From positions 34,122-98,121 of the forward strand of contig JAZDOG010000100.1 in NCBI GenBank assembly GCA_043798915.1: DNA of 64,000 nt, written 5' to 3'. This document shows, in pieces, positions 24,192 through 58,301 of this stretch. Every line of letters starts with the position of its first letter. Position 1 is the stretch's first letter. The stretch is from Pseudomonadota bacterium. GTDB lineage: Bacteria > UBA10199 > 2-02-FULL-44-16 > JAAZCA01. The notes beneath the pieces were generated by a model that was given only the letters and a program-made list of their open reading frames with translations, made no database searches and was not told the origin of the DNA. The translations under genes were made by a program, and so were the position numbers.

Positions 24192-24221
24192 GTCGTATCG
24201 CGTGATGCGTGACGGAATATA

Positions 24222-25001: not shown

Positions 25002-25013
25002 GGACGCCTCACT

Positions 25014-27535: not shown

Positions 27536-27557
27536 CTCGAACTCCTTTGCCTCTTTT

Positions 27558-27594
27558 CCCTCTCCCCTGGTGGGAGAGGGTCAGGGTGAGGGGG
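27558..27594. repeat. REP-like palindrome, family A
   Basis: CCCTCTCCC.CTGGT.GGGAGAGGG.TCAGGGTGAGGGG. Confidence 0.7.
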
Positions 27595-27628
27595 AATTTC
27601 TATCTGTGTTTGTAGCACACGGCGGGCA

Positions 27629-28696: not shown

Positions 28697-28715
28697 AAAC
28701 TCCTTGTGCCTTTAT

Positions 28716-29210
28716 TTACTGCACCTGCGTGTTGAGCACATTCTTCACCGAAGAGACTGCATTTTCAGTGACCTTCACCGTGAGCTCCGTCATCTGGGAA
28801 AAATGGAAGACGTGCGCCTGGATGACGAGCAGCTCCTGGTTGGAGAATTTCTTTCCGCTGTAGAGGACGTGATTGACGAGGCTGTCCATCTGCATCTGAC
28901 CCTTGTTGACCTCGCCCAGCATGTCCAGCACCTTCTCTGATGCTGCCGGCTTCGAGAGGTCGGTCGCGTCCGTCGCGGGCGTGAAATCGACGCCGTCACC
29001 GCCCAAGGACTCGACGCTGGATGTCGGACTGATGTCCTGATTGCCTCCGACTCCCATCGTGTTGGCAAAATCCGCGCCGCTGTCCATCTGCGCGAGCATA
29101 TCCTTGAAATTGGATCCCTGCATCTGCGGCTTCGCCATCTCATCGGACTTGATGGACGCCTTGGCCAGGGCTTCGCTCGAAAGTTTGCTGACTATCGCTT
29201 CGATCGCCAT
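28716..29210 (-). CDS. sctI: SctI/HrpB2-like inner rod protein
   Basis: C-terminal ELLVIQ...ELTVKVTENAVSSVKNVLNTQ. Confidence 0.7.
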   Translation of the reverse strand: MAIEAIVSKLSSEALAKASIKSDEMAKPQMQGSNFKDMLAQMDSGADFANTMGVGGNQDISPTSSVESLGGDGVDFTPATDATDLSKPAASEKVLDMLGEVNKGQMQMDSLVNHVLYSGKKFSNQELLVIQAHVFHFSQMTELTVKVTENAVSSVKNVLNTQVQ

Positions 29211-29213
29211 GAT

Positions 29214-30086: not shown

Positions 30087-30149
30087 CTTTCCCCCCTTGA
30101 AAAACCTCCGACTTATAAATGCGTTCAGTGATGCTCCGTCCAATTTGAA

Positions 30150-30165
30150 TGCAGAAAGCGTGCCA
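30150..30165 (-). promoter_or_regulatory. sigma54 promoter of fliA-like/T3SS operon
   Basis: TGGCACGCTTTCTGCA; IHF-like AAACAGTGCGTTA about 30 nt further upstream. Confidence 0.75.
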
Positions 30166-30393
30166 GCCCGGGGGGCTTGAGGGCCTACTTTCCTAACGCA
30201 CTGTTTTTAAGGAGGTTATCGATCGGACAAAGCGTCAGACGGAGCAAATCAAAGGGATCGGGGCAGCCATTTTTGGGGGGAGGAAACCCCAGAATAAAAA
30301 GCCGGCACCCCAATTTCTGGGCTCAAATGAGCGATAGGCATTTCGTGGAGGTAAATATAGATAAAGGGGACATTCCCTTTGTCCTTTTGTTCA

Positions 30394-31848: not shown

Positions 31849-31948
31849 GATGATGGAACCCCTAAGAGCGCAGTTCAAACCTCAGATAAACTCGTCCCAC
31901 CCGCCCATAAAAATTCCCTTTTTTGTGTGGACGACCAGCAGGATGACA

Positions 31949-32338
31949 TCAACCCGCCTTCTTCGCCTCCGGGATGTTCTTCATTATCGCATCCGTCATA
32001 GCATAGCGGGCATGGTCACGGATGGATTCAGGAAACGTCCCCAGGGACTTCTCGACATTCGATTGCCAGACGGGAGTCAGCTTTTCCAGATTTTCCCTTC
32101 CTTTTACCGTCATCATCGCTTCAAGCGCCTTGCGGGTTTGTTCGCGCACCTGAGGGAGGCTCTCGCTCTTGCGACCCACTAACATCGCCAACTCACTGGC
32201 AAAGTTCGCGTCGGGAATTGCGGGCGAACCATATCCGGATTTCGGCGCTGCACTGGGAGCCTCAGTCCTGCTGGCTCCTTGCGGTGCAATGCTTTCTATT
32301 GAATTTTGACGAGTGGATCCGATCGGTGTCAGCATCAT
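31949..32338 (-). CDS. hypothetical T3SS-cluster protein
   Basis: RBS GAGGTG; Ser/Ala/Pro-rich N-terminus; co-oriented with neighbours. Confidence 0.65.
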   Translation of the reverse strand: MMLTPIGSTRQNSIESIAPQGASRTEAPSAAPKSGYGSPAIPDANFASELAMLVGRKSESLPQVREQTRKALEAMMTVKGRENLEKLTPVWQSNVEKSLGTFPESIRDHARYAMTDAIMKNIPEAKKAG

Positions 32339-32346
32339 CACCTCGC

Positions 32347-32772
32347 TTATATTCTCTGCGCCATTCCTGACATGGCCCCGGCGCGGGCGTCAAGGACCTT
32401 CATGATCTCGCCTTCGCTGGCGGAGATATCGAAAGATGCCGGCTCGATCGGAGACGATCCTCCAAGATTCAAACCCGGAAAAGATACCTGCGTCGGATTT
32501 TCCCTCTGCTGTTTCTCTGCGGCTTTGGCCTGCGACTTGGCCTGCGACATGTCTCCAATAGAGCCCAAGCCGTACATGCCGGCCGCCGCGATCGCCGCTG
32601 GCGGAAAGATGAACGAAAGGGGCGCAGCTATGGCGCCCAGCACCCTGCCGGCGCCGGAGAGAAAACGCCCGAACCAGCCGGGCTTCTTCTGTTCGCGCTC
32701 ATGGGGATCCTGCCCCTGGACCGTCCGCATCTCGAATCTCACGAGGTCAGGTTGAATGGAATTGAGTGACAC
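32347..32772 (-). CDS. hypothetical T3SS-cluster protein with amphipathic/hydrophobic hairpin
   Basis: GTG start after GGGAGGTG; GWFGRFLSGAGRVLGAIAAPLSFIFPPAAIAAAG. Confidence 0.7.
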   Translation of the reverse strand: MSLNSIQPDLVRFEMRTVQGQDPHEREQKKPGWFGRFLSGAGRVLGAIAAPLSFIFPPAAIAAAGMYGLGSIGDMSQAKSQAKAAEKQQRENPTQVSFPGLNLGGSSPIEPASFDISASEGEIMKVLDARAGAMSGMAQRI

Positions 32773-32813
32773 AGCGCACCTCCCGAATGATTGTTTCACT
32801 GCTCTCATCATTA

Positions 32814-32842
32814 TTATCGGCCGGGAGGGACCCTGAAGTTGC
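32814..32842 (-). promoter_or_regulatory. sigma28-like promoter
   Basis: GCAACTT-N14-GCCGATAA. Confidence 0.75.
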
Positions 32843-32877
32843 TAAAAAAACAGCCGATAGTTGATAGCTATCGGCTG
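32843..32877 (-). terminator. intrinsic terminator after sctJ
   Basis: CAGCCGATAG-loop-CTATCGGCTG followed by T tract on minus strand. Confidence 0.75.
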
Positions 32878-32904
32878 CCATGTAACTATCTGATTTTAAA
32901 CAAC

Positions 32905-33873
32905 TTATAATTCGTCATCCGAAGTGCCGCCGCCGAGGCGCGGGAGAGAACCCTCGTCGAGGATATGACCCTCTATTGCCGGGTGCCCTCCGGCAGGCCC
33001 CTGGAGGGCAGCCAGCGTCCTCCTCACCCGGCTCCCCTGCACTATGAATATGATGAGGGCGGCGGATATGACGACGAGCAGAAGGAAGAATATGAGCAGG
33101 TACACCTTGAGCCGGTCCTTCGACTCAGAATCCAGCTTGAGCCCCATCAGCTCCTCGGACGGGCTCATCGCGGCAGTGACTGCTGCAGGCGGCGGGAGGC
33201 CCGGGGCCTCCGTGGGGAGCGTCCTCACATCGCCGGGCCGGAGCGCCTTCTCATCCCCCGTGATATAGCTGATGATCACCGTGACGTCGCGCGGGTTCAT
33301 CCCCTCGACGGAGTTTGCCACGAACTGCTGTATCTTCGGCTCCGTGACCGACTCGATGCCGCTGATATCGGGCTTTGAACGGATGACGACCGACGCCGTC
33401 GGGCGCAGCTGCTTCTGCCTCTCGGCATCGCCGAACTCGTCTTTCGTCGGGACGTTGAGGACCACGTCGGCGCTCACTATCTGGGGTATGCGCTGCAGCG
33501 AGTTTATGATCTCGCCCTTGAGCGCCAGGAGATAGCGCGCCTTCTGTTCATCCGGCGTGGGGATCAGCCCCTTCTCCTTGTAGACGCCGGTGAGGCCCAG
33601 TTCCTTCCGCCGCGGGAGGTTGTGCTGCACGAGCAGCGAGCGCGACTTGACCATGTCCGCATCCCTCACCTCAAGCGAGTAGCTCACCTCGTTTTGCAGG
33701 ACCACCTTCTTCTTGATCGCCTTGATGTTGTTCTCGGAGAGGAGGACGAGTATGTCGTTCGCCTCATCCTCCGACAGGTTCTGATAGAGCTCTATCCTGC
33801 CGCAGCCGGACACGATGAGGACGATTGCGAAGCACACCACCATCAGCGCAGGAATGAGTTTTGACCTGTTCAT
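32905..33873 (-). CDS. sctJ: SctJ inner-membrane ring lipoprotein
   Basis: Lipobox VSGC, LYQNLSEDEANDI, GLIPTPDEQKAR, PTASV, C-terminal TM. Confidence 0.93.
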   Translation of the reverse strand: MNRSKLIPALMVVCFAIVLIVSGCGRIELYQNLSEDEANDILVLLSENNIKAIKKKVVLQNEVSYSLEVRDADMVKSRSLLVQHNLPRRKELGLTGVYKEKGLIPTPDEQKARYLLALKGEIINSLQRIPQIVSADVVLNVPTKDEFGDAERQKQLRPTASVVIRSKPDISGIESVTEPKIQQFVANSVEGMNPRDVTVIISYITGDEKALRPGDVRTLPTEAPGLPPPAAVTAAMSPSEELMGLKLDSESKDRLKVYLLIFFLLLVVISAALIIFIVQGSRVRRTLAALQGPAGGHPAIEGHILDEGSLPRLGGGTSDDEL

Positions 33874-34286
33874 GATGCCTTTCCTCCCTTTTCGCCAGCC
33901 GCCGGCACGAGGCCGTTCTTGATCGCGTCGATGAGCGCCCTGGCAAACTCGCCAGCGCCCCCGCGATCCTCCTTCGCCACCGCCGTCAGAAGTTCCATCG
34001 CCTTGCCGCGCTTTCCTGAGAAGAAGAGCGCCTCTCCCATATAGACCCTGGCGAAGACACTCTTCGAATCGATTTTGAGAGCATTGGTATAATAGCGCAT
34101 CGCCTTTGCAAGCTTGCCTTCGCAGAAATCGACGTTCCCGAGCGCAACAAGCGGCACCTCGCTGTCGGGCGCGATCACGGAGAGGCCCTCGAAGAGCTCG
34201 CGGGCCTCCTTGAACCTCTTCATGCCCATGTAGATGTAGCCCGCCTCCATCATCACTGCCAGGTGCTGGCGATCAATTGAGATCAT
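33870..34286 (-). CDS. TPR protein (YscG/CdsG/HrpB1-like chaperone)
   Basis: Three TPR-like helical pairs; between needle-like gene and sctJ. Confidence 0.7.
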   Translation of the reverse strand: MISIDRQHLAVMMEAGYIYMGMKRFKEARELFEGLSVIAPDSEVPLVALGNVDFCEGKLAKAMRYYTNALKIDSKSVFARVYMGEALFFSGKRGKAMELLTAVAKEDRGGAGEFARALIDAIKNGLVPAAGEKGGKAS

Positions 34287-34381
34287 AACAATACCCCACA
34301 ATACCCCCGTAGCTCTAAAAAAACCCGCGGACTGCATTATATGCAATCCGCGGGGAGAATTCCAACCATCATTTCAGCCTA

Positions 34382-34921
34382 TCATCTTGCCTGGAACTTT
34401 TCGATCATCGACATGCGGGCGCGATGGTCCGCAGAGAGGATGTTCGACTTGGTGTTCCACGACTGCATGTTGTTCTGCATGACAGCCTGCAGCTCGAGCA
34501 GCTGGAGGTTGTTGCTGTTCATCGTGTTGATCATGTCCATCTGCGACATGCCATTCGCGCCGGCGACGGCATTTGTGCCGCTAAGACCCCCTGCGCCTAT
34601 AGAATCGCCTTTGTAGCCCATGCCGGCCGCAAGATACGGCGCACCGCCCGACATCCCGCCGCCCACCGACGCACCGTAGGCGCCACCGCCGCCGATTGAT
34701 CCCGACGCTGCGCCTATGCCTGAAAACGCCGCGCTCAGCACCGCCGCGGAATTGGTGCCTCCGTACACCTGCCCCGCCGTCATGGCGGTGGGCCCCATCG
34801 CGCCTATCGCGTCCATCATGGAGTTGAAATCAGGGCCGGAGCTCATGCCCTTCATCTTGGTGCCCTTTTTATTTGCACCAAGCTGTGGAACCAACTGGGG
34901 ATTGATCTTCTCAATGGTCAT
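34382..34921 (-). CDS. SctF-like needle/filament subunit candidate with long Gly-rich N-terminus
   Basis: C-terminal LLELQAVMQ...SNILSADHRARMSMIEK resembles SctF helix. Confidence 0.55.
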   Translation of the reverse strand: MTIEKINPQLVPQLGANKKGTKMKGMSSGPDFNSMMDAIGAMGPTAMTAGQVYGGTNSAAVLSAAFSGIGAASGSIGGGGAYGASVGGGMSGGAPYLAAGMGYKGDSIGAGGLSGTNAVAGANGMSQMDMINTMNSNNLQLLELQAVMQNNMQSWNTKSNILSADHRARMSMIEKFQAR

Positions 34922-34955
34922 ATTTTGCCTCCGCACTCTTTTCCTTCCACTCATA

Positions 34956-42333: not shown

Positions 42334-42756
42334 TCACTTCTTCGGGCGGCCTGCCGGTTTTGCAAGACCCAATATGAACTCCGCATCCTTGATCGCCTGT
42401 TCTGCATCGAGTCTGGAGTAGAGCTCCGATGGCGGGAGATCCGTTTCGTCATCGCCATAGAAGCTTGTCTCACGCTCTTTGCGCAGGACACGGGAGATTC
42501 GCTTGACGGATTCTATTTCTTTTTTCCATAAAGAGGGGAGTTTGTCCGCGTTTTGCTCCAAAAGCCATCCCACGTCGTGAAGGCGGGGCACTTCCACCCC
42601 GATGCGCCTGAGGGCCGCCTTCGTGACGAGTTCAACGACTTCCTGCGCCCTGCGAACGACCATATTCCAGCAGGATTTTTTGAAATAGTTGCGCGCCTCA
42701 TCGAGGATCAGCGCGGACTGGTCGAAGTAATGCCGGCTCATCTCCTGATTTGTCAT
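42334..42756 (-). CDS. HEPN-domain protein
   Basis: [24 protein letters not shown]; overlaps MNT gene. Confidence 0.88.
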
Positions 42757-43256
42757 ATCGTGAATTCCTCCTCCCATTTTATACCGGGTTTTATTTCCCA
42801 ATAGCGCACGGAACCGATTTTTTTCCTTTTCGAACCGAGATCCGCCATCCTTTTTTTGAGCTTGCCGATAATTCCCTTGAAGAAGCCGCCTTCGTCGCGG
42901 AGATAAACGGCGTCCTCCGTGAGGTCGAAAAACAGGGGACGCACATGCCTTGCCTCAGCGGTTGTCTTGAGAAAATAATTTAACTCCGAAAATATCCCTT
43001 CATGGCGGAGGTCATCAAACTCGCCTTCCAGTTTTTCCTCGATCGGTTCCATGATCCGGTTTCGTGCGAGGCGGCCGTCCGGCAAAGAGCGCATGATGAT
43101 AATTAGGTCGATATCCGACGATGGATTGGCCTCGCCGCGCGCCACCGATCCGAAAAGGACGATGGAAACCGCATTGCCGGCAAACCGCTCGATAACGAGC
43201 CGCGCGAAATCCGCAGCCAGCTTGCGCAGTCTGACATTTATGCCGTTCTCTTTCAT
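42753..43256 (-). CDS. minimal nucleotidyltransferase (MNT)
   Basis: LFGSVARGE...SDIDL. Confidence 0.9.
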   Translation of the reverse strand: MKENGINVRLRKLAADFARLVIERFAGNAVSIVLFGSVARGEANPSSDIDLIIIMRSLPDGRLARNRIMEPIEEKLEGEFDDLRHEGIFSELNYFLKTTAEARHVRPLFFDLTEDAVYLRDEGGFFKGIIGKLKKRMADLGSKRKKIGSVRYWEIKPGIKWEEEFTI

Positions 43257-43319
43257 CGTATCACCAAAAGTCTGATGAATAGTGTGATAAGAACTCCTTA
43301 GCAAGACGAGATGTTTTTG

Positions 43320-45392
43320 TCACACTGTAATTCCAGCAGAATTTCCGATCACCTTCAATATTTCCTCCCCATACCGATCGAGCTTGACGGCGCCGAAGCC
43401 GAAGCATTCTCCAAGTTCCGCGATGTTCGCAGGCCCGGCTGCGGCGACGGCCCGAAGCGCCCGGTCGCTCGCGATGATGAATGGCGGCACCCCTTCAGAC
43501 TTCGAGCGGAGAAACCGCCACGCGCGAAGCCGCTCGAAGAGCGGATCCGACGGCGCAATTGCAGGATCGGCGCGCGGCGGCCGCCTGCCCTTTGCCGGGG
43601 CATCCGGCTTGCTTCTGAACGGCTTCGCCTCTCCGCTGCACACATCGCAATGCCCGCACGCGGAGGACCGGCCGCCAAAATAGCGTATGAGGCGCATCTG
43701 CCGGCAGCTGCGGGACATGGCATATCTCACCATGGCATCGAGCTTGGCTTCGTCGCGGCGGCGCTTTTCCGCGAGCGCATCGCAGTCGATCGGCAGATCT
43801 TTCGGATCGATGCGCCGGCTGATTATCACAGCTCTCCCCGGCGAATCTCCCGCAGAACTCCTGTCGATGACGTCCATCCGCCTGAGGATGCCCAACGCGC
43901 TCGACACCGTCATGTCCGACGCCCCTTCTATTCGCGCGGCGATGGCCCTCGCGGAGATTTCGATGACATCCAGCTTCTCGTCCAGGAGCGCCCTGTAGGC
44001 GCCGCGGATCAGCTCCGGGCCCGGATTCGAACCGTCGATGAAGAACTCCTGTATCCTTCTGTCTGCAAACGAGAACAACAGCTCGCAGCGCGAATATTTT
44101 CCGTCGCGCCCCGCGCGGCCGGCTTCCTGGTAATACGCCTCGACCGAACCGGGCATCTGATAGTGGACGACCAGCCGGATATCCGCCTTGTCGATCCCCA
44201 TGCCGAATGCGTTGGTCGCGGCGATGACGCGGATTTCGCCCTTCATGAAGGCTTCCTGCACGGCGGTCCTCTCGCCGTGTTCCATGCCCGCATGATATAC
44301 GCCGGTTTTGATCCCCCGGGCGGAAAGCATGGAGCCCGCCTCTTCCGCGCGCTTGCGCGAGGCCGCATAGATGATCGCGGGGCCATCCGATTCTTTGAAC
44401 AGCGCGGCCAGGCGCTGGCTCCGCTCCTCCTCGCCTGAAACCGGCGTCACCGCGAATGCGAGATTCGGCCTTTCAAAGCCGGTGACGAATGTCACCATGT
44501 TCGGGACGTCGAGCTGTTTCACGATGTCCTGCTGCACCTCCGGCGTGGCCGTTGCGGTCATGGCGACGACCTGCCTTGCGCCGGATTTTGAAATCGCCCT
44601 GCCGAGGCGCATGTAATCCGGCCTGAAATCGTGCCCCCACTGTGAAATGCAGTGCGCCTCGTCGACGACGAAGATGTTCGGCGACAGGCGCGGAAGTATT
44701 TCGACAAACGACGGGACCTTGAATCGTTCCGGCGCGACGTAGAGGAAACGAAGTTTTCCTTCGGCGGCCCTTGCGATGACCTCTTCCTGTTTGTCGGGCG
44801 CAAGCGAGCTGTTGAGCGCCGCAGCCGGTATGCCGCGGCGAGAAAGCTCGTCCACCTGATCCTTCATCAGGGCGATGAGCGGGCTCACGACGATGCAAAG
44901 CCCGCTGCCCATAAGCGCCGGCAGCTGGAAACACAGCGATTTTCCGCGGCCGGTCGGCATCACCGCAAGCGTGTGCCTTTCACCGACGATTGCGCGGGCG
45001 ACCTCTTCCTGTCCGGGGCGGAAGGAATCGAAACCAAAGTGTTTCTTGAGCGCCGCATGCATCTCTTCGCTGCCGGCGCGCGCCGGCTCAAGGCACCCTT
45101 TCTCGCCACCCCCGCCGGCATCGACAATCTCCCTCGCTGCAAGAGCTTCCCTCTCCGCGACGCGCGCGAGGAACGAGAGGGCAAAGGCATTCTTTGGGTC
45201 GCGGCGGATCGCCTCTTCAAGGAGCGGCCTCGCCTGCGACAGATCGCCTGCGAGAAAATAGCAATGGCCGAGATTCGACAGGAGAAACGGCGTCTCTCCG
45301 AGCTCGTCCATCGCCTCTTCGAACAGGGCGATCGCGCCGCGCGGATTTCCCGAACGTTTGAGTTTCAGAGCGCCGGCGACCTTGTCATCCAT
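43320..45392 (-). CDS. recQ: RecQ-family DNA helicase with N-terminal TPR and C-terminal HRDC
   Basis: [39 protein letters not shown]. Confidence 0.92.
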
Positions 45393-46094: not shown

Positions 46095-46691
46095 TCACTT
46101 ATCCAATTCCACATTCCAATAGCTGAAGTCGATCATGTTGAAGAACGGCCGCCACTCGTCGTATTCGATCGGGCCGGATATCAAGTCGACGAAGGGCGTG
46201 GATTTGGGGCGCACCGGCAGGCAAAGCGGCTTCATCCCGGCCTCGTGCGGGAGCCTGCCTCCCTTTTTGCGGTTGCATGGATGGCAGCTCGTGACGACGT
46301 TGTCCCAGGCGGTGACGCCGCCGCGCGAGCGAGGGATGACGTGGTCGATGTTGAGTTTCGATCGGGGAAATCTCTTTCCGCAATACTGGCAGGTGTGGCG
46401 GTCGCGGAGCATGATGTTCAGGCGCGAGAAGCGCACGGTGCGCCTGGGAAACCTGTCATATGAAGAGAGCAGCACGACGCGCGGGACCCGGACCGCCTTT
46501 CCGATGATGCCGACTGTGTCGTCGTGCACCGCCGCGGACAGCTCCGTCCAGCTCATGAAGTCAAACGTGCGATGTTCGCGATCCACCGCTCGCGCGATGC
46601 CGGCAAAGAGCATGCAGAAAGCCCGCCGCGCCGTAACGATATTGACCGGCATGTAAAACCTGTTCAGGACCAGGACCTGGCTCGATAACAT
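46095..46691 (-). CDS. HNH endonuclease
   Basis: VLVLN, RDRHTCQYCG, IDHVIPRSRGG, C..CN.KKG. Confidence 0.92.
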   Translation of the reverse strand: MLSSQVLVLNRFYMPVNIVTARRAFCMLFAGIARAVDREHRTFDFMSWTELSAAVHDDTVGIIGKAVRVPRVVLLSSYDRFPRRTVRFSRLNIMLRDRHTCQYCGKRFPRSKLNIDHVIPRSRGGVTAWDNVVTSCHPCNRKKGGRLPHEAGMKPLCLPVRPKSTPFVDLISGPIEYDEWRPFFNMIDFSYWNVELDK

Positions 46692-47963: not shown

Positions 47964-48275
47964 TTACGCCTTACGCCTGCGGTATAGTCTGCATCCAAAA
48001 GCATCAATATGTTTCTTCAATTCTGAATTTGAAATTTTATCATAATCGATCACATCGAATTTGTATGGCAGGTTTGTCTCGGCGTTCAACTTGCGCGACA
48101 GACGGCCAACCAGAGCAGCGCTGATCCGCCCCTTCAAAGCCAAATCCACGTCCGAGCCCTTCTTGAAATTGCCCATTGCGCGCGACCCGAAAATTATAAC
48201 ATCAGCGATTTCCGAAAAACTCGCAAAGATGGCGGCCAATTCGGAAATCTGGCATTTCGAAAGTCCAAACTTCAT
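47964..48275 (-). CDS. minimal nucleotidyltransferase (MNT)
   Basis: IFGSRAMGN...SDVDLA. Confidence 0.9.
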   Translation of the reverse strand: MKFGLSKCQISELAAIFASFSEIADVIIFGSRAMGNFKKGSDVDLALKGRISAALVGRLSRKLNAETNLPYKFDVIDYDKISNSELKKHIDAFGCRLYRRRKA

Positions 48276-48674
48276 TCACTTGTTCTCTTTATTGAAAAAG
48301 GCGATCAGTTTTGCCATGGCTGGCTGATAGGCAGAGACAATGAGCCGCATTGCCTCTTTTGCTCTTTTTTCATCATACGTATGGGCGAGGAGATTTCGGT
48401 TTTCAAGCATATCCAGCCATATTTCTCCGTCGGATATTATGCCATGATGAAACGCTTCTTTTATGATATCTCTGGGGAAAGAAACCTCGACACCCCTGTC
48501 TTCGAGAAAATCTTTTAAAGTTTTCCAGGCCAGTTCAAAAGTAAACTCAAAGCTCTTGATTATTCCCTGCCGCTCAATTTCACCGGGCTTGGCTATCTTC
48601 AGTCCTTTTTGAAGCTGGAAATAGGCCTTTTGCAGATTTTGAAAACGCTGTTTCCAGCGGATTTCCTTGTTCAC
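48276..48674 (-). CDS. HI0074-family HEPN nucleotidyltransferase substrate-binding protein
   Basis: RWKQRFQN, FEFTFELAWK, RNLLAHTY. Confidence 0.92.
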   Translation of the reverse strand: MNKEIRWKQRFQNLQKAYFQLQKGLKIAKPGEIERQGIIKSFEFTFELAWKTLKDFLEDRGVEVSFPRDIIKEAFHHGIISDGEIWLDMLENRNLLAHTYDEKRAKEAMRLIVSAYQPAMAKLIAFFNKENK

Positions 48675-50629: not shown

Positions 50630-51550
50630 TCAACAAAGGAAGCGCTCGACTTCGCCGACAATATCATCACGCCGTTCCGGATCAAACCACATGATCTCCG
50701 GGTCGGCGCTGAACCATGTCATCTGGCGCTTGGCGAAATGGCGGCTGTTCTTCTTCATGAGAAGGACCGCTTCCTTCAAATCCATTTCCCCTTTGAGATA
50801 CGCAGCGATTTCACGATAGCCGACAGCGGAAAAGGGCTGAGAGGCGGAGTCGTGATGCGAGATGAGGGAGCGGACCTCTTCCACAAGCCCCCCCCCGATC
50901 ATCCGGTTCACGCGCTCATCTATGCGGCGATAGAGCTCGGCGCGATCGACCTTCAGGCCGATCTTCAAGGCGTCATAGCGCCTTTCTTTGAACCCGTGGC
51001 ATTTTCTGATGGCAGTAGCGGACATCCCCGTCAGATGGTGGATCTCGAGCGCCCTGACGATCCTCGCCCTGTCGTTAGGGTGGAGCCTTGCGGCGGACCC
51101 GGCGTCGACGGCCGAGAGCCTCTCGTGCAGCATGGGCGCACCGTGTTTCTCCATCTCTGCATCGAGCTCAGCGCGAAAATCCGGATCGCGGGGCGGGGCA
51201 TCGCAAATGCCGTGCACCAGCATCCTTATATACATGCCGGTGCCGCCCACGATGAATGGGACCCTGCCGCGCGCGCGGATATCGGCGATGGCCGCATCCG
51301 CAAGCGCGACGAACCGCGAGGCGTCGAAATGTTCGCCCGGGATGGCCACGTCGATGAGGTGATGCGGCACATCGCCCTGCTCGGTGAGGGCCGCCTTGGC
51401 CGTCCCGATGTCGAACCCGCGCCACACCGCTCCTGAATCGGCAGAGACGATCTCGCCGTCGAATTTGCGCGCAAGCTCGACACCCACCCGCGTCTTTCCA
51501 GAGGCGGTCGGCCCACAGATGATTATGATTTTTTGCAGCGCATTCGTCAT
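50630..51550 (-). CDS. miaA: tRNA dimethylallyltransferase
   Basis: GPTASGKT, DIGTAK, VGGTGMY, FAKRQMTWF. Confidence 0.96.
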   Translation of the reverse strand: MTNALQKIIIICGPTASGKTRVGVELARKFDGEIVSADSGAVWRGFDIGTAKAALTEQGDVPHHLIDVAIPGEHFDASRFVALADAAIADIRARGRVPFIVGGTGMYIRMLVHGICDAPPRDPDFRAELDAEMEKHGAPMLHERLSAVDAGSAARLHPNDRARIVRALEIHHLTGMSATAIRKCHGFKERRYDALKIGLKVDRAELYRRIDERVNRMIGGGLVEEVRSLISHHDSASQPFSAVGYREIAAYLKGEMDLKEAVLLMKKNSRHFAKRQMTWFSADPEIMWFDPERRDDIVGEVERFLC

Positions 51551-51717
51551 AAAAAATTGGCCCGCCAGTTTAAACGAGCGGGCCAACGGTAAAGGACAAA
51601 AGCGTAGAAGTCTACATCACTTATTGGAGTCTCGGGGAGGAACACCGTCCCGTCTGGGCACTTGCTTGCCACCTTCACATCGCCTGCTCCGATAAAGCAA
51701 CTGGGGTTCCGAAGCAT
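51547..51717 (-). pseudogene. internally deleted copy of FGE/SUMF1 gene 53718-54500 (56-aa mini ORF)
   Basis: IGAGDVKVASKCPDGTVFLP vs MIGAGDAKVTVRCTDGMVFIP; 51670-51693 matches 54474-54497 at 23/24 nt; 3' flank also duplicated. Confidence 0.7.
51551..51586 (-). terminator. intrinsic terminator-like hairpin
   Basis: TTGGCCCGC...GCGGGCCAA with T6 on minus strand. Confidence 0.6.
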
Positions 51718-51760: not shown

Positions 51761-53431
51761 TTAACGGCCTTTTTTCTGTGCTGCCATGAGCGCTTTTTCA
51801 ACGAATGTTTCAGCCTGATGCCCACCTAAAAAACGGTCGAAGGAAAAGATGAAGCTAAAAGAGATCGGGCGACCTCCATTTTCCATCGCATAACCACAGT
51901 AACTCCTTACCCCATGAATGTAGCCCGACTTGAAGAATATTTCCCCTCTGAACCGCCCCCCTCCGAATGCCCGTGCAGTTGAGGGGCCACCTCCCCCTCC
52001 GGAATGGGCAAGCGAGTGTTGAAAGCTCCCAAAAACTGGCTGAGTCGACATGAAGCCCAACAGCTCCGACAGAACCTCGGAGGAAATGCTGTTCATGCGC
52101 GAGAGCCCGCTTGCATCAGCAAGCGTCACGCTGGAGGTATCGATCCCTGATGCCCGGAGAAATTCTACGATGGCATCGAGGCCTCCCTGGAGGCTCCCCT
52201 CATGACCTGTTTCGACTGCCAATGCGCGCGCCAACATTTCGGCATAGAGGTTCACACTTTTGCTGTTCGTCACGCGGATGATATCCTTGAGCGGTGGCGA
52301 GGCAATATCGCCGAGCTGCTGCGTGTTATGATCGCTGCCTTCCGAATAATATATCGAACTTACCGATATCGTGACTCCATCCGCTTCGAGCTTCTTTTTC
52401 AAAGCACGCCCTGCAAAGAGAGCGGGCTCTGGAATTGATCCTTTGATTGCAAACTCCCTGACACCGGCCGGAACCGTCCCCTCCAGCGCGTCGTGGTATT
52501 CTCCCGGCAGACGGCGCACATAGCCATGATCTCCGGAACCCGTCTCCCCAGTCTTCATGTTATTTGTGAACTGCAATCCCTTTATTTCCGGTTCTGTTCT
52601 GAGAAGTGCGGCAGGATCACCCGGTTTTTCCCCCGGCTTAAAAATCAGCCGAAACTCATTGTTGTTGATGGAGAGGGCGTCGACCGGAGCGGCGTAATAA
52701 TTGCCGAGATCATCGTCGGTCCAGCTGGCAGGCACTGAGGGGCCGCTGAAGCGGCTGTTATCAACTCTGACACTTCCTTCAATGTGTCTGATCCCGGCAC
52801 GGTGAACAAAACGACTGAGCTGGGCAAGAACCCCGTCCATAGACTGCGAGCCGTTCACCATGCTTGACCCGAGCGTTGGATCTCCTCCGCCGGCGAGGAC
52901 CAAATCTCCATAAAGGGTGCCGCCCGCGATCACACCCGTGTGATAGAGCTGTGTATGAAAACGATAGTCCTCTCCAAGCGTCACCAATGCGGCGGCGGTC
53001 ACAAGGGTTTTTAGAGAAGAAGCCGGTGCGAGGGGGGCGTTCCTGGCCCAAAAGGCCACACCCTCTCCAGTGTCCATGTATCTCATGCTTGCAGAAAAAT
53101 TTGCGCCGGGCAGATTTTGGTTCCGGAAATAAGCCGAATCTGCGGCATGGTCAGAAAAAAATCTCATCCTTGCCACATAAGGAGGGGATCTTCTCAGGTC
53201 TTCGAAGAGGATCTTATTATCAGCAGAAAACACTTTACTCAGCTGAGCGTATTCACTGTCATCGATAAACCCGGGGCTCTTTTTGTTGATCGCATCCGCC
53301 AGCATAGAAACAGCCGAGGACTCCTCCGAGGGCAATGCTTGCCTTAAGCATTCCCCATCGATGCGGCCGCGTTCAGCGTAAGCATTTCTGATCCAGTCCG
53401 CCGGTTTTCCAGGCATTTCACATCTCGCCAT
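51761..53431 (-). CDS. dacB: DacB/PBP4 (peptidase S13) D-Ala-D-Ala carboxy/endopeptidase with non-signal N-terminal extension
   Basis: PASSLK (SxxK), GGDPTL, SVN, DASGLSR, KSG. Confidence 0.9.
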   Translation of the reverse strand: MARCEMPGKPADWIRNAYAERGRIDGECLRQALPSEESSAVSMLADAINKKSPGFIDDSEYAQLSKVFSADNKILFEDLRRSPPYVARMRFFSDHAADSAYFRNQNLPGANFSASMRYMDTGEGVAFWARNAPLAPASSLKTLVTAAALVTLGEDYRFHTQLYHTGVIAGGTLYGDLVLAGGGDPTLGSSMVNGSQSMDGVLAQLSRFVHRAGIRHIEGSVRVDNSRFSGPSVPASWTDDDLGNYYAAPVDALSINNNEFRLIFKPGEKPGDPAALLRTEPEIKGLQFTNNMKTGETGSGDHGYVRRLPGEYHDALEGTVPAGVREFAIKGSIPEPALFAGRALKKKLEADGVTISVSSIYYSEGSDHNTQQLGDIASPPLKDIIRVTNSKSVNLYAEMLARALAVETGHEGSLQGGLDAIVEFLRASGIDTSSVTLADASGLSRMNSISSEVLSELLGFMSTQPVFGSFQHSLAHSGGGGGPSTARAFGGGRFRGEIFFKSGYIHGVRSYCGYAMENGGRPISFSFIFSFDRFLGGHQAETFVEKALMAAQKKGR

Positions 53432-53454
53432 ATCCTGTATTCCTCTCCTTTTGA

Positions 53455-53481
53455 TTGTCGGCAGATCGGCGGAAAAGTTGC
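53455..53481 (-). promoter_or_regulatory. sigma28-like promoter of dacB-like gene
   Basis: GCAACTT-N12-GCCGACAA then RBS AAGGAG. Confidence 0.7.
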
Positions 53482-53536: not shown

Positions 53537-53568
53537 AAAACCTGGTCCGCCTGTTTAAGGGCGGACCA
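53537..53568 (-). terminator. terminator-like hairpin after FGE gene
   Basis: TGGTCCGCC...GGCGGACCA then T4; homologous to 51551-51586. Confidence 0.55.
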
Positions 53569-53585
53569 AGGGTAAAAAACAAAAA

Positions 53586-53698
53586 GGTAACTATTCAGGT
53601 CCGCTTAGCCAGGTTGTCATCCCAGCGGGTGTAAGCTGGGATCCAATGGATTCCTGCTTTCGCAGGAATGACAAACCAGAAGCACCTGAATAGTTACC
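53586..53698. mobile_element. MITE with perfect 15-bp TIR and AAAAA target duplication, enclosing family-B REP doublet
   Basis: GGTAACTATTCAGGT...ACCTGAATAGTTACC; empty site seen in duplicated block 51588-51615. Confidence 0.75.
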
Positions 53699-53717: not shown

Positions 53718-54500
53718 TCACTCCCTGGAGTCCGGCAGTTCGCCCACCGTCGGTTCAGTGGCGGGCTGGAGCGGGACAACACAACGAAAGCCGATATTTC
53801 TGTCGCGCTTATCGGAATCAACGAGGCTGTAATTCACGGGATGCAGACCGACGAACGGGGGATTGTTCGCGTGGCTGAACCAGGAACCGCCGTAAACTAC
53901 TACTACTTCCCTTTCCCTTTCCCTACTGGTCCTTTCAGGATTTTCCTCCTGGATCGATGCGTTCTCGTAAAGTGTCCCGACGAGCCTCAACAAAGACGAA
54001 CCGTTCGTCCACTCCCCGACCTTCCCGGCCATGTCGTACAACCCCAGGCTGTTCTTGCCGTGCGTACGGGCCTTGGCCATTATATCGGCATTATACTGCA
54101 CCTCGCCGTCATTCAGTTGGTCGCTCGCTATGCCGAAGTCGCCCATTCCGGATTTTCCGCGAGCCATTTGTTTGCATTCTGCCTTCGTTGGGAGCCTTCC
54201 GCCGGGGTATTTCCACGCGCAGTAGTTCCGGGCATCCTGCCAGCCAACGAATACGACCGGCTGTCTGGGGCCGTCGGAGCCCTTCTCCGTTATCCGGGGT
54301 ACTGGGACTTTGTTCTTCTTTTCATACGCGGAGTATTCGGAATTTGTCACCTTATGCCTCTCCATGCAAAAGCCGCTCACCTCGGTTCTCCCGACCGGCC
54401 GCTCGTCGCTGTCGCTATTCTCCGACCCCTTGGCCGTGGGGATGAACACCATCCCGTCTGTGCACCTGACTGTCACCTTCGCATCGCCTGCTCCGATCAT
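53718..54500 (-). CDS. FGE-sulfatase/SUMF1 (C-type lectin fold) domain protein
   Basis: VTNSEY, GRLPT.AE, NSLGLYDMAG.V.EW, GGSW, IGFRCV. Confidence 0.88.
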   Translation of the reverse strand: MIGAGDAKVTVRCTDGMVFIPTAKGSENSDSDERPVGRTEVSGFCMERHKVTNSEYSAYEKKNKVPVPRITEKGSDGPRQPVVFVGWQDARNYCAWKYPGGRLPTKAECKQMARGKSGMGDFGIASDQLNDGEVQYNADIMAKARTHGKNSLGLYDMAGKVGEWTNGSSLLRLVGTLYENASIQEENPERTSREREREVVVVYGGSWFSHANNPPFVGLHPVNYSLVDSDKRDRNIGFRCVVPLQPATEPTVGELPDSRE

Positions 54501-54645: not shown

Positions 54646-54665
54646 ACGTCATAACGTTATGACGT
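54646..54665. promoter_or_regulatory. TA operator palindrome overlapping a sigma70 promoter
   Basis: Perfect 20-bp palindrome ACGTCATAACGTTATGACGT across the TTGACG-17-TATTCT promoter. Confidence 0.7.
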
Positions 54666-54688
54666 TATTCTTATACAGGAGGTGCCAA

Positions 54689-54922
54689 ATGGACCAGCAG
54701 AACAAAAGGGCCACGATATATCTCTCGCCGCATCTTCATAAAGCGCTCAAGCTCAAGGCCGCCGAGAGCGACCGCTCGATATCGGATCTCGTCAACGAAG
54801 CGGTGAAAAGGAGCATCCGGGAGGACGCCATAGACCTCTCAGCGATCCGCTCCCGGCACAAGGAACCGCGCCGCTCGCTTGAGGAGTTCATCCAGGAGAT
54901 GTCCAAAAGTGGCCTCCTATAG
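54689..54922 (+). CDS. CopG/ribbon-helix-helix antitoxin
   Basis: KRATIYL...LHKALKLKAAE...ISDLVNEAV. Confidence 0.85.
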   Translation: MDQQNKRATIYLSPHLHKALKLKAAESDRSISDLVNEAVKRSIREDAIDLSAIRSRHKEPRRSLEEFIQEMSKSGLL

Positions 54923-55166
54923 CATAATCATCTGCCGAAGAGCGGAAAAGGAAATCATCTCCGCTCCGAAACCAGACCGCCAGCGGATCGTCGCGCGCAT
55001 CCGCAAACTGTCCGCCAATCCGCGCCCGCACGGCTCTGAAAAACTCAAGGGCAACACAAGCTACTGGATCAGGCAGGGCGACTGGCGCATTGTCTACACC
55101 GTGTCCGACAAGGATCGCGTCATATCCATCGACAAGGTCGGCCACAGGCGCGAGGTGTACCGCTGA
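54909..55166 (+). CDS. relE: RelE/ParE-family toxin
   Basis: NPRPHGSEKLKG, IRQGDWRIVY, VGHRREVYR. Confidence 0.9.
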   Translation: MASYSIIICRRAEKEIISAPKPDRQRIVARIRKLSANPRPHGSEKLKGNTSYWIRQGDWRIVYTVSDKDRVISIDKVGHRREVYR

Positions 55167-55238: not shown

Positions 55239-56387
55239 ATGGGAAAGATAATTCGGAGACTGATCGATATAAACCTTCCAAAAAGGCAATCCGCCTTTCT
55301 CTGGGGACCTAGGAAGGCCGGCAAAACATATTGGATCAAACACCACTTAAAAGACGCTGTCATCATCGACTTTTTGAAGACCGATATATTCGCAGAATAT
55401 TCATCAAGGCCAAGCCTCTTGAGGGAGAGATACGGAAAGCACAAAGGGCTGATCGTGATAGACGAGGTGCAGAAGATCCCCTGCATCCTGGACGAGGTCC
55501 ATTGGCTGATCGAAAACAGCGATGCCAATTTTCTGCTCACCGGTTCCAGCGCGAGAAAACTGAAACATGGGCACGCAAATCTGCTGGGCGGGCGCGCGTG
55601 GCGGCGGATCATGACACCGCTCTCCTTCATGGAGGTGGATTCGATAGATATGGAAAGGACGATGATCTCCGGGCTCCTGCCTCCGCACTATCTCTCCCCC
55701 GATCCAATCGAGGACTTGAGGGCATACGTTGCGGATTATCTCAAAGAGGAAATCGCGGCGGAGGCGCTCGTGAGAAACATCCCGTCGTTCAGCGAGTTTT
55801 TGAAGGTGGCCGCCATCACGAGCAGCGAACTTTTGAACTACACGAACGTCGGGCGCGAAGCAGGCGTCTCATCGAAAGTCGTCAGGGGATACTTTGACAT
55901 CCTTGAAGACACATATCTCGGATTCAGGATACCTCCCTGGACAAAATCCAGAACCAGGCGGATGATCGAGACTGAGAAGTTCTATTTCTTCGACGTCGGC
56001 GTCGCCAATCATCTCGCAAAGAGGCACCCGGCGATCGGGAGTCCGGATTTCGGAAAGGCGTTCGAGCATTTCATCCTGATGGAGCTCAAGGCTTATCAGG
56101 CCTACCGGGACCCCGATCTCGAAATATCATTCTGGCGCACGAGCTCGGGGCAAGAAATTGATTTCATCCTCGGGGACAAGGAAGCGGCAATTGAGATCAA
56201 GGGTTCCAGGCGCGTGCACGAGGGGGATATTTATCCGATGAAGATTTTGAAGGAAGACGCGCCGGCGAAGAGGCACATCATCGTGTCGCTGGAAGAGGAA
56301 AAAAGATCGCTGAATGGATGGATAGAAATCCTGCCTTGGCGGGTCTTTCTGGAAGAGCTGTGGAGCGGCCGCATTCTATCGAAATGA
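55239..56387 (+). CDS. AAA_14 + DUF4143 ATPase
   Basis: GPRKAGKT, IDEVQK, TGSS, KFYFFDVG, EIDF..EIK. Confidence 0.9.
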   Translation: MGKIIRRLIDINLPKRQSAFLWGPRKAGKTYWIKHHLKDAVIIDFLKTDIFAEYSSRPSLLRERYGKHKGLIVIDEVQKIPCILDEVHWLIENSDANFLLTGSSARKLKHGHANLLGGRAWRRIMTPLSFMEVDSIDMERTMISGLLPPHYLSPDPIEDLRAYVADYLKEEIAAEALVRNIPSFSEFLKVAAITSSELLNYTNVGREAGVSSKVVRGYFDILEDTYLGFRIPPWTKSRTRRMIETEKFYFFDVGVANHLAKRHPAIGSPDFGKAFEHFILMELKAYQAYRDPDLEISFWRTSSGQEIDFILGDKEAAIEIKGSRRVHEGDIYPMKILKEDAPAKRHIIVSLEEEKRSLNGWIEILPWRVFLEELWSGRILSK

Positions 56388-56397: not shown

Positions 56398-58209
56398 CTA
56401 TCCCCTTCTCTTGAACCACTTCTCTATCTCAGACTTTTCTATTTTCACGATAGCCGGGCGGCCGTGGGGGCAGTGGGTGACGTTCTCGCGCTCGATGTCG
56501 CGCACGAGCGCTGCGAGTTCCTCGCTTGAAAGGGCGTCGCCGCCGCGCACCTGCCTGTGGCAGGCGACGACCGCGAAGATCTTCTCGGCGGCTTCGTCGA
56601 CAGAGTTCGAGCCGCCGATCTCCTCCAGCTCCGCCGCCAGCTTTTCAAAGAGAGGCGATAGGGCGACGTCGCCCAGGATCGCCGGGACCTCCTTGACGAG
56701 GAGCGTTCCGCCGCCGAACGGTTCTATCTCGAAGCCCGCGCGTGTAAGCAAACCGAAATTCTCCTCGACATAAGCGAGCCCCTTGACCCCGAGTTCCACG
56801 CGCTCCGGCAAAAGCAACCTCTGCCGCGGCACTTTGCCCGCCGCATATCCCTGTTTCAAGGCGTCGAACCCCAGCCGCTCGTGCGCCGCGTGCTGGTCGA
56901 TGAGGACGAGCATGCCGTCGGCATTCTCACAGACGATGTAAGTGGAGGCGAGCTGGCCGAGCACGCGCAGAGTTCCTGCGCGCGTACAGGTTTCAAAACC
57001 CTGCTCTCGGGCAACTCCCCCTTTGGAGGCAACCTCGGAGGGGGAAACCCCCTCCCCGCCGCTCACGCGGCGGCTCCCCTCCCCAGCCTCCCAAGGGGGA
57101 GTTGCCCTGCGCAGGGTTTTGAAACCAGAACTCGAATCGCTGTCGGTCAGACGCGACTGCTCGTATCGAAACATCGCGGATTCGACGCCTGACCGGGTGA
57201 TATCCGGAGCGATTGTCGACAAAAGATTGGATTGAACGACCTTTCTCACCGCCGCCATGACGAAATCATGCACCGCGCTGCCGTTTGAAAACCGGACCTC
57301 GCGCTTCGCGGGGTGGACGTTCACGTCGACCTCGGATGGATCGACGTCGATCCAGAGGACGGCGGCGGGATATTCCCCGCGCGAGAGCCTCTCGCCGAAG
57401 GCCGCGGAGACCGCGTGCATGAGGAGCCTGTCGCGCACCGGCCTCCTGTTCAAGAAGATGTGCACGTCCTTTCCGCCGGCCCTCCCTTTGTCCGCAACCC
57501 ATCCGGACACCGCGATGATGCCGCCCTTCTCGCCCACCTCCGCGAGCTGCCCGCGGATATCCTCTCCCATGACGGCGGCGACGCGCTCCTTCAGATCGCC
57601 CGCCCGCGATACGAACCGGCGTTTCCCGTCGCCCGAGAGCTCAAAGCGGATGTCAGGGAATGCGAGCGCCAGGCCCATCACAACCTCAGAGACGTGGCCA
57701 TACTCGACGGCGGCCGAACGCAGGAACTTGAGGCGCGCCGGGACGTTGTAGAAGATATCCGAGGCCTGAGCCTTCGTGCCGGCGGCGCATCCGGCGACAA
57801 CCGGGCCGCATACCCTGCCGCCGTCCACTTCGATCCTCGCCCCCTCCACGGCATCCGGGCGGTTTGGCTTCGACTCGATCGAAAATCTTGAAACCGCGCC
57901 GATGGCGGCAAGGGCCTCGCCGCGGAACCCCATCGTGCGGATGGCCCAGAGATCGGCCTCGGCAGCGATCTTGCTGGTCGCATGGCGGAGGATGGAGCGG
58001 CCCAGATCATCCGCATCCATCCCGGAACCATCGTCGATGACTGCGATGCGGCGCTTGCCGCCATCCTCGACATCGATGCGTATCGAAGACGCGCCGGCGT
58101 CGATCGCGTTCTCGACGAGCTCCTTGACGACGGATGCCGGCCGCTCGACGACCTCGCCCGCGGCGATCCGCTCCGCGACCTCCCTGGGGAGTTCCCTTAT
58201 GATGCCCAT
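56398..58209 (-). CDS. mutL: DNA mismatch repair protein MutL
   Basis: IAAGEVVERP, GFRGEAL, DQHAAHER, CPHGRP. Confidence 0.97.
   Translation of the reverse strand: MGIIRELPREVAERIAAGEVVERPASVVKELVENAIDAGASSIRIDVEDGGKRRIAVIDDGSGMDADDLGRSILRHATSKIAAEADLWAIRTMGFRGEALAAIGAVSRFSIESKPNRPDAVEGARIEVDGGRVCGPVVAGCAAGTKAQASDIFYNVPARLKFLRSAAVEYGHVSEVVMGLALAFPDIRFELSGDGKRRFVSRAGDLKERVAAVMGEDIRGQLAEVGEKGGIIAVSGWVADKGRAGGKDVHIFLNRRPVRDRLLMHAVSAAFGERLSRGEYPAAVLWIDVDPSEVDVNVHPAKREVRFSNGSAVHDFVMAAVRKVVQSNLLSTIAPDITRSGVESAMFRYEQSRLTDSDSSSGFKTLRRATPPWEAGEGSRRVSGGEGVSPSEVASKGGVAREQGFETCTRAGTLRVLGQLASTYIVCENADGMLVLIDQHAAHERLGFDALKQGYAAGKVPRQRLLLPERVELGVKGLAYVEENFGLLTRAGFEIEPFGGGTLLVKEVPAILGDVALSPLFEKLAAELEEIGGSNSVDEAAEKIFAVVACHRQVRGGDALSSEELAALVRDIERENVTHCPHGRPAIVKIEKSEIEKWFKRRG
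56989..57126. repeat. 138-bp palindromic element in frame within mutL linker
   Basis: 16-bp perfect TIR GGTTTCAAAACCCTGC plus inner GGGCAACTCCCCCTT/AAGGGGGAGTTGCCC. Confidence 0.8.
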
Positions 58210-58301
58210 GTTGCCTCCATCCGGCAGGCCTAGCATGGCCGCCGGGTCCTTTCTACAAAATTTTCTTGCTCAAAACATTGGAACATTACAGCATAGGTAT
58301 C

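Follow-up and report, generated by a model that had tools for sequence, protein, structure and literature searches.

How would a cell-wall peptidase without an export signal reach its substrate, and what ties such an enzyme to a secretion system of type III (T3SS)? The question is raised by an extra dacB gene in a 64,000-nucleotide stretch of DNA (the window: contig JAZDOG010000100.1, positions 34,122 to 98,121, assembly GCA_043798915.1) from an uncultured groundwater bacterium placed in the Pseudomonadota. An earlier note on this DNA had suggested that the enzyme is exported by the T3SS into bacterial prey, or else remodels the wall of its own cell. Our analysis leaves DacB a plausible but unproven T3SS cargo. 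It also brings out two further features: outside this genome the N-terminal module of the protein heads TPR proteins, and one such gene follows a promoter of the same type; and a signal-less SLT lytic transglycosylase with a sigma-28-type promoter is conserved in 18 of 19 relatives examined. The gene and the elements on which the argument rests are as follows.

51761..53431 (-), coding sequence of the signal-less PBP4/DacB paralogue (P0001), 556 aa plus stop
51842..53125 (-), Peptidase S13 (PBP4) catalytic region, residues 103-530, by Pfam match
53009..53020 (-), SxxK motif S138-S-L-K141 (SSLK) with the catalytic serine, by alignment
52250..52258 (-), SxN motif S392-V-N394 (SVN), by alignment
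51923..51931 (-), KTG-type motif K501-S-G503 (KSG), by alignment
53117..53431 (-), N-terminal module of DacB, residues 1-105, hydrophilic, with six predicted helices, in the place of a Sec signal
53442..53448 (-), Shine-Dalgarno sequence GGAGAGG, 10 nt ahead of the dacB ATG
53455..53481 (-), sigma-28-type promoter GCAACTT-N12-GCCGACAA, 23 nt before the dacB ATG, matching the genome consensus
53541..53570 (-), terminator-like hairpin of the upstream gene, with a T-tail that spans a spurious longer start at 53536

The catalytic part of the protein looks functional. Peptidase_S13 (PF02113) matches it with an E-value of 9.3e-81 (272.3 bits, threshold 22.8), and the TIGR00666 model for PBP4 gives 237.1 bits at a cut-off of 107.8; the E. 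coli DacB equivalog model, NF008322, gives 156.4 bits, under its cut-off of 527. The S13 motifs had been described as intact, and SSLK, SVN and KSG were all found in place, in nearly invariant columns of the homologue alignment. Among 41 homologues, 100 columns are at least 90% conserved, and the window protein retains 92 of them (family median 95%, lowest member 89%). Among structures already solved it comes closest to B. subtilis PBP4a (E 1e-38 with 1W5D), to E. coli PBP4 (1e-35 with 2EX2) and to the R39 DD-peptidase; its residues 106-529 align end to end with residues 20-439 of the 1W5D chain. An AlphaFold (AF2) model made from 44 aligned sequences has a mean pLDDT of 85 and a pTM of 0.80, with pLDDT mostly >90 in the catalytic region. 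Residues 259-332 form an all-beta segment (beta strands, pLDDT >90) that we read as a retained domain III, and in the model the full three-domain architecture of PBP4 appears to be present. Judged from its sequence, DacB is a catalytically competent-looking PBP4-type DD-carboxypeptidase/endopeptidase.

What sets this protein apart is its N-terminus. Public gene calls (P0002) use a longer open reading frame (ORF) of 591 aa that starts at 53536. We place the start at the ATG at 53431, because GGAGAGG and the promoter lie upstream of it and because the N-terminus then matches that of the module homologues in length, while the ATG at 53536 lies in the T-tail of the hairpin. Even when the 591-aa ORF is scanned, the first 160 residues reach a maximal Kyte-Doolittle mean of 0.43 (15-residue window), so that no hydrophobic N-terminus is present, and the remaining two frames at the 5′ end of dacB offer no usable hydrophobic start. 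A signal peptide hidden at an alternative start or in another frame was looked for in this way, and none was found at any start or frame. PBP4 homology starts near residue 106, and the roughly 100 hydrophilic residues that the earlier note had seen in place of a Sec or lipoprotein signal correspond to a module of about 105 aa with no hydrophobic stretch. A hydrophobic N-terminus is seen in 111 of the 119 nearest PBP4 homologue clusters; eight clusters lack a clear one and look borderline or truncated, and none of these eight bears a long hydrophilic extension. The genome does possess a separate housekeeping dacB, on contig C12, which encodes a classical signal peptide and shares 30% identity with the window copy.

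We then asked how firmly dacB can be assigned to the promoter family that precedes the T3SS genes. The boxes at dacB are GCAACTT at 53481..53475, a 12-nt spacer and GCCGACAA at 53462..53455; the first base of GCAACTT is the position at which the earlier note had ended the locus. The 2.34-Mb genome (G000, 97% complete) was searched for GCAACTT-N12-14-GCCGATAA, with the reversed sequence as control. There are 37 sites with no mismatch (25, 5 and 7 with N12, N13 and N14 spacers) and 15 with one (10, 3 and 2), and the control has none of either kind; the 11 two-mismatch sites (8, 3 and 0) are not above chance, as the control contains 13. The family at up to one mismatch thus comprises 52 sites as against 0 in the reversed sequence, and the class to which the dacB site belongs (one mismatch, N12) comprises 10 as against 0. 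When the 25 exact N12 sites, without that of dacB, are turned into a weight matrix, the dacB site ranks 24th of all genome positions. The claim that a regulon promoter stands ahead of dacB is well supported by this ranking and by the absence of the family, at up to one mismatch, from the control. The textbook sigma-28 consensus is TAAAGTTT-N11-GCCGATAA, which the sites of this genome resemble in their GCCGATAA box and spacing.

Within the window, sites of the family start at about 62728, 53481, 38010, 34983 and 32841, all on the (-) strand, and the T3SS operons of the window are preceded by the N14 sites at about 34983 and 32841. At least one site of the family is also present in 14 of 19 related sigma/T3SS loci, many at matching distances upstream of the sigma gene. 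Two spacing classes can be recognised. The N12 sites usually have an upstream A-tract and a 'cAC', and stand before most of the large signal-less ORFs; the SLT gene and the T3SS operons have N14 sites, a class that is conserved in relatives. The candidate reader of these promoters and the secretion genes lie together.

29214..30143 (-), FliA/WhiG-like sigma factor (TIGR02479) inside the T3SS cluster, presumed promoter reader
20350..34936 (-), non-flagellar T3SS cluster with SctJ, sigma-28, FliG-like, SctL, SctN, SctO, SctP, FliM-like, FliN/SctQ, FliO, SctR, SctS and SctT genes

The best family for the sigma gene is TIGR02479 FliA_WhiG (E 1e-37, 130 bits, below the cut-off of 189.6). It is the sole FliA/WhiG-like member of the four sigma-70-family genes in the genome; another is RpoH, and the remaining two are, by open-frame size, probably RpoD and a small ECF-type factor. 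We infer that the factor encoded in the T3SS cluster reads the GCAACTT-type promoters. A search for sequencing runs that could show expression listed none. No match to the FlgM family (PF04316) was found in the 97%-complete genome.

In gene content the export core of the T3SS is complete: the window encodes SctRST, J, L, N, O and Q, and SctV and SctU are encoded elsewhere. SctV is encoded on contig C42 (L038 1384..3558) and scores 792 bits with the hrcV model, above its cut-off, while staying below the cut-off of the FlhA model; SctU is on contig C13. The SctV gene adjoins the 3′ end of secA, outside the T3SS cluster. SctV is unusually conserved, being 76-91% identical to the 119 other 90%-identity clusters listed, of which the named ones are labelled Deltaproteobacteria, Pseudomonadota or bacterium, and the T3SS is therefore a conserved trait of this uncultured lineage. 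The cluster mixes injectisome-type components (an SctJ lipoprotein and, on contig C42, an hrcV-type SctV) with flagellum-like ones (FliG-like, FliM-like, FliO and its own sigma-28). Four ORFs that belong to no family are Gly/Ala/Met-rich or coiled-coil (34382..34936, 32347..32772, 19019..20281 and 17200..18117), and needle, rod or translocon proteins may go unrecognised among them. Next to the cluster (12343..16648, +), a Ser/Thr protein kinase that carries six PEGA repeats precedes an FHA-domain sigma-54 activator; the two may be upstream regulators of the T3SS.

Other routes of export were surveyed in the same 97%-complete genome, and the searches found no flagellin (PF00669), no rod or hook protein (PF00460), no sheath protein TssC of a type VI secretion system (T6SS; PF05943) and no VirB4 of a type IV secretion system (T4SS; PF03135). 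Its secretins include a GspD above the cut-off of its model and a Tad-type secretin (pilus N-terminal domain plus BON) on contig C6 (L042 1312..3393) that adjoins RcpC/CpaB. We take the latter arrangement to mean that a Tad/Flp pilus system is present beside the T3SS, comparable to the pair of Kil and T3SS* in Myxococcus.

To see what else the promoter family controls, we assigned to every one of the 63 sites the first plausible ORF that follows it and scanned the 51 ORFs of at least 80 aa outside the window with Pfam; eight of these 51 follow two-mismatch sites. No Pfam match at 1e-5 was obtained for 33 of the 51 (28 of the 43 behind sites with at most one mismatch), and many of these Pfam-less ORFs are large (700 to 2635 aa) and lack a hydrophobic N-terminus. 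Recognisable members include three FGE-sulfatase-domain proteins, GGDEF, PilZ and NYN proteins and a 1972-aa FHA protein. The earlier note had proposed to check the other genes with this promoter for wall hydrolases, and the regulon has two further wall enzymes: a MepK-like M15 peptidase with a signal peptide and an SLT lytic transglycosylase without one.

The SLT gene (C76:18417-19091, L071) encodes 224 aa with a hydrophilic head of 80 residues and no signal peptide. An SLT match was found in all 41 genomes searched. Nineteen full-length orthologues from class genomes (loci L111-L129) were examined; they are 53-68% identical, all 19 lack a hydrophobic N-terminus, and in 18 of them an N14 promoter of the GCAACTT family lies 17-68 nt upstream. 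Given this conservation, the missing signal and the promoter, a signal-less wall-cutting enzyme, presumably co-regulated with the T3SS, is a fixed feature of the lineage. The pattern parallels that of flagellar FlgJ.

A short N-terminal motif recurs among the signal-less regulon proteins. At least 12 of them start M-x-(G/A)-(G/A)-G (for example MIGAGD, MTAGGE or MRGGGD), and a Cys often follows no more than 15 residues later. The proteins are encoded in the window (53718..54500, -) and on contigs C12, C46, C71, C76, C80, C85, C91, C92, C94 and C102, and include four FGE-sulfatase-domain proteins. The motif may serve in export or processing.

The module at the N-terminus of DacB was examined separately. 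Residues 1-105 match no Pfam family. An exhaustive phmmer search against 1.8 billion representatives returned seven matches at E ≤0.001, one of them the window protein itself. Real relatives are P0125, a TPR protein of 745 aa with the module at residues 11-104, and P0126, a stand-alone protein of 106 aa; P0124 and P0127, which are long repetitive proteins, and P0122 and P0123, very long proteins with a multi-stretch match pattern, were treated as composition artefacts. A six-frame search of 93 class genomes (G000 included) added one more module, in a 408-aa TPR protein of genome G057. Within the dacB-bearing genome no paralogue beyond dacB itself was found, either by tblastn or with a four-member profile over all six-frame ORFs. 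Twelve alignment columns are invariant among the four module members, and DacB keeps all 12. The G057 gene lies directly behind GCAACTA-N12-TGCGATAA, and the same -10 variant occurs in the dacB-bearing genome; the module is thus linked with the promoter in two genomes that are distant from each other. It is portable and heads unrelated C-terminal domains. Shuffling of N-terminal modules onto unrelated domains is typical of secreted effectors.

When the module alone was modelled with AF2, six helices were predicted (pLDDT 76.8, pTM 0.66). A fold search with this model gave no clear known fold (best Foldseek E-value 1.1), which is not evidence of a new fold; the best VIA-align match has a Z of 4.4 and a root-mean-square deviation of 4.2 over 72 aligned residues. 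No usable match was found among ESM Atlas look-alikes.

The surroundings of dacB bear on where the gene came from. It lies in an islet between mutL and miaA, with the following neighbours.

50630..51586 (-), miaA, the downstream flank of the islet
53585..53697 (no strand), 113-nt element that separates dacB from the FGE-domain gene and carries inverted repeats of 15 nt at its termini, GGTAACTATTCAGGT...
53718..54500 (-), FGE-sulfatase-domain protein without a signal, starting MIGAGD...
54659..55166 (+), RHH antitoxin / ParE toxin pair
55239..56387 (+), AAA_14/DUF4143 ATPase
56398..58236 (-), mutL, flanking the islet upstream

Of 12 family relatives, 10 have mutL and miaA overlapping or no more than about 125 nt apart; another shows a gap of 1.2 kb, and in the last mutL is missing from the flank. 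The gap measures 4.8 kb in the dacB-bearing genome, which agrees with the earlier description of an insertion into a commonly adjacent gene pair. The FGE-domain gene of the islet has a degenerate upstream site of its own, and three paralogues elsewhere stand behind sigma-28-type sites. A second full copy of the 113-nt element is found at C98:41461-41572 (97% identity), and its core of about 35 nt recurs on eight more contigs, with two additional sites on C20 and C98.

The composition and phylogeny of dacB point the same way. The GC content at its third codon positions (GC3) is 0.56, against 0.74-0.86 for miaA, mutL, enolase and sctN. In a quick maximum-likelihood tree, from which 7 of the 119 homologues were excluded by length (outside 400-560 aa), window DacB falls in a six-row clade with P0003, P0004, P0005, P0008 and P0012 (SH-aLRT 99). 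This clade nests in a 16-row clade (support 95), the named members of which are Elusimicrobia metagenome-assembled genomes, and the DacB copies of its own lineage fall elsewhere; 4 of the 11 rows from relatives are mis-extracted ORFs with branches of about 7-10 and are to be ignored. These observations indicate that dacB is foreign, acquired horizontally from an Elusimicrobia-like lineage.

Further loci were seen in the window, all at some distance from the islet. A nucleotidyltransferase/HEPN pair, minimal and toxin-antitoxin-like, is Pfam-confirmed at 42334..43304 (-), and a TPR-RecQ fusion adjoins it at 43320..45392. A small ORF pair at 47964..48674 (-) resembles a second such pair by eye only, and an HNH endonuclease lies between the two loci at 46095..46691.

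Based on these results we propose the following course of events. The gene would have been transferred from an Elusimicrobia-like lineage and then re-headed, its Sec signal and first mature residues giving way to the helical module of some 105 residues with a sigma-28-type promoter. The protein would leave the cytoplasm through the T3SS export gate, with the module as the recognition or targeting part, and once outside would cut D-Ala-D-Ala ends or DD-cross-links. We favour T3SS-dependent export because the enzyme is intact, because peptidoglycan, the one known substrate, is extracytoplasmic, and because DacB has no Sec or Tat signal and the T3SS is the only signal-independent machine recognised; we favour it also because the promoter family drives the T3SS and because a second signal-less wall enzyme, the SLT, is conserved in the regulon. 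The portability of the module and the part that a needle-less T3SS plays in prey lysis by Myxococcus xanthus also count in its favour. We regard it as the best reading, with about an even chance of being right. On the side of the target, action on the wall of another bacterium is our tentative choice, and local loosening of the producer's own wall seems less probable. Our reasons are the occurrence of the gene in this strain only, its place in an islet and its promoter, which is of the N12 class of the large accessory proteins; the conserved SLT already fits a role in self-remodelling. The islet also holds another regulon-type gene, that of the FGE-domain protein, beside dacB.

A number of observations weigh against T3SS export or against its direction toward other cells. 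The dacB site has N12 spacing, in contrast to the N14 sites at the T3SS structural operons and the conserved SLT, so that dacB shares with the T3SS operons, here and in relatives, the promoter family and not the spacing. The regulon is broad: about 14 of its ORFs bear a signal or membrane segment, others are of plainly non-secreted types (GGDEF, PilZ, NYN), and one site lies inside dnaG. A place in the regulon is thus not enough to conclude that a protein is secreted. DacB also lacks the M-x-(G/A)-(G/A)-G motif. Typical T3 signals are Ser/Thr-rich, and the first 25 residues of DacB are charged and not Ser/Thr-rich; only residues 1-9 look disordered, and residues 10-105 are predicted to form a compact six-helix domain, unlike a classical T3 signal and chaperone-binding region. 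Among the other 92 class genomes the module was found in a single one. All four secretins stay below the SctC cut-off, and the needle family (PF09392) has no match in the genome, in a search run without a positive control genome. The window type of dacB was not found in 40 relatives, which carry only copies at 26-32% identity, and its branch length in the tree is 1.2, against a median of 0.19. Lastly, nothing in the genome analysis shows predation, and none is known for the lineage.

The earlier idea of export by the T3SS thus stands in part. All three checks by which the earlier note could have been refuted came out on its side: no start or frame gives a signal peptide, a housekeeping dacB exists apart from the window copy, and, as far as promoters show, dacB goes with the T3SS operons. 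The lack of a signal, the T3SS promoter family, the sigma gene within the T3SS cluster and the lack of a match to a T6SS sheath or VirB4 speak for it, and the broad regulon, the N12 spacing and the folded module speak against it. Against a prey-directed DacB stand the retention of domain III and the lack of any sign of predation. A still wider proposal, that the non-flagellar T3SS of this widespread 'deltaproteobacterial' groundwater lineage is an antibacterial weapon and the sigma-28 regulon with its more than 50 promoters the arsenal, including wall cutters that traded their Sec signals for passage through the type III gate (the lineage-wide SLT and, in this strain, a captured DD-endopeptidase with a portable helical module for export), we consider doubtful.

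Several of these points would also fit other explanations. DacB may never leave the cytoplasm and may instead belong to a sigma-28-driven differentiation programme, trimming D-Ala-D-Ala from soluble or lipid-linked wall precursors, or acting on another cytoplasmic substrate, and so slowing or altering the cell's own wall synthesis, with the module as a regulatory or docking part. FliA/WhiG-type sigmas govern developmental genes in other bacteria, the regulon here has cytoplasmic signalling proteins (GGDEF, PilZ), and a folded helical module that is elsewhere fused to TPR scaffolds, on a protein with no export signal of any kind, would suit such a role. Yet a full three-domain PBP4, built for polymeric peptidoglycan, has been kept, a strain-specific islet gene is unexpected for a core developmental function, and the SLT, which is conserved in this regulon and likewise has no signal, acts on a substrate that is certainly extracytoplasmic; to our knowledge, no PBP4-family enzyme works in the cytoplasm. 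We consider a cytoplasmic DacB unlikely, although it would be a new setting for PBP4. The missing T3SS-type secretin and needle, together with four secretins that include a GspD above cut-off and a Tad-type one next to RcpC, could point to export by a route other than the T3SS: a type I system with a C-terminal signal, a Tad or type II-like system after an inner-membrane step, vesicles or lysis. Proteins that leave by the type II or Tad route must first cross the inner membrane by means of a Sec or Tat signal, which DacB does not have; the searches for T6SS and T4SS markers gave no match, what is new in DacB stands at its N-terminus rather than its C-terminus, and the shared promoter family points to the T3SS. 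Such a route is in our estimate improbable.

About as improbable, or slightly more so, is a dacB whose product is made but has no selected function. A unique gene with a rare module and a long branch could be a young, unselected chimera, neutral or decaying, which lost its 5′ end on insertion and gained a foreign 5′ segment and promoter by chance. Its restriction to one genome, its deviating GC3 relative to neighbouring core genes and an islet that carries a toxin-antitoxin pair and a repeat element all agree with this. Against it, the 556 codons are read through without a break, and every catalytic motif and 92 of the 100 conserved columns are retained; the ribosome-binding site is strong and a high-scoring promoter lies at the correct distance; and the module keeps every one of the 12 columns that are invariant among its four members.

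Type III secretion is familiar as a means of injecting eukaryotic cells and of assembling flagella. Its sole known link to bacterial killing is the needle-less system of Myxococcus, for which the lytic cargo is given as not known (PMC12075869). If the wider proposal of an antibacterial T3SS were correct, DacB and the SLT would represent a first concrete class of lytic cargo for a needle-less T3SS of the kind that Myxococcus needs for prey lysis. The combination of a re-headed wall enzyme, a conserved signal-less SLT and one promoter family that ties both to the T3SS provides cloneable candidates. Furthermore, the sigma-28 regulon is large and easily recognised in an uncultured lineage, and can be used for listing candidate cargo proteins. 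Among the top-ranked matches of a literature search, which are not proof of absence, no description of a PBP4/DacB-type enzyme as type III cargo was found, and no paper was found on type III secretion in UBA10199.

Comparison with known systems places the window enzyme between several of them. With the housekeeping PBP4/DacB proteins (E. coli 2EX2, B. subtilis PBP4a/DacC 1W5D, Actinomadura R39 1W79) it has family, domain order and motifs in common; it differs in having no Sec signal, a 105-residue helical module in its place and a sigma-28-type promoter. Peptidoglycan hydrolase effectors of the T6SS, such as PseM, also lack a Sec signal and reach the periplasm of a neighbour by a contact-dependent machine, but in the genome studied here no T6SS sheath gene was found and no immunity gene was identified adjoining dacB.

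Closer in enzymology is Bdellovibrio bacteriovorus, which according to PMC3276566 uses two extra DacB-like endopeptidases, Bd3459 and Bd0816, on the walls of its prey. The paper describes both as devoid of domain III, with an opened active site, and gives the solved form as residues 38-446, "predicted secreted" (PMC3276566). The window protein is similarly an extra copy beside a housekeeping one, under a special expression programme and with a proposed target in the wall of another cell; unlike the Bdellovibrio enzymes it keeps domain III, has no signal peptide and belongs to an Elusimicrobia-like clade. On the side of the machine, Myxococcus xanthus depends on its needle-less T3SS* to lyse prey, a process in which peptidoglycan is degraded locally, and the effectors of T3SS* are described as not yet known (PMC12428579, PMC12075869). 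The system in the window resembles T3SS* in being non-flagellar, in its deltaproteobacteria-like host, in the lack of a recognised T3SS secretin or needle and in the presence of a Tad-type system in the genome. It differs in its FliG-, FliM- and FliO-like genes and its own sigma-28, and the likeness is one of description.

Wall-cutting enzymes attached to type III machines are known in the form of FlgJ in flagella and EtgA-type lytic transglycosylases in injectisomes, and FlgJ has no Sec signal and exits via the type III gate. FlgJ and EtgA are glycosidases or transglycosylases and core parts of their systems, whereas window DacB is a DD-peptidase, strain-specific and encoded 17 kb from the T3SS cluster. 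The likeness would lie in a wall cutter that is co-regulated with a type III machine, a pattern that the signal-less SLT of this lineage fits.

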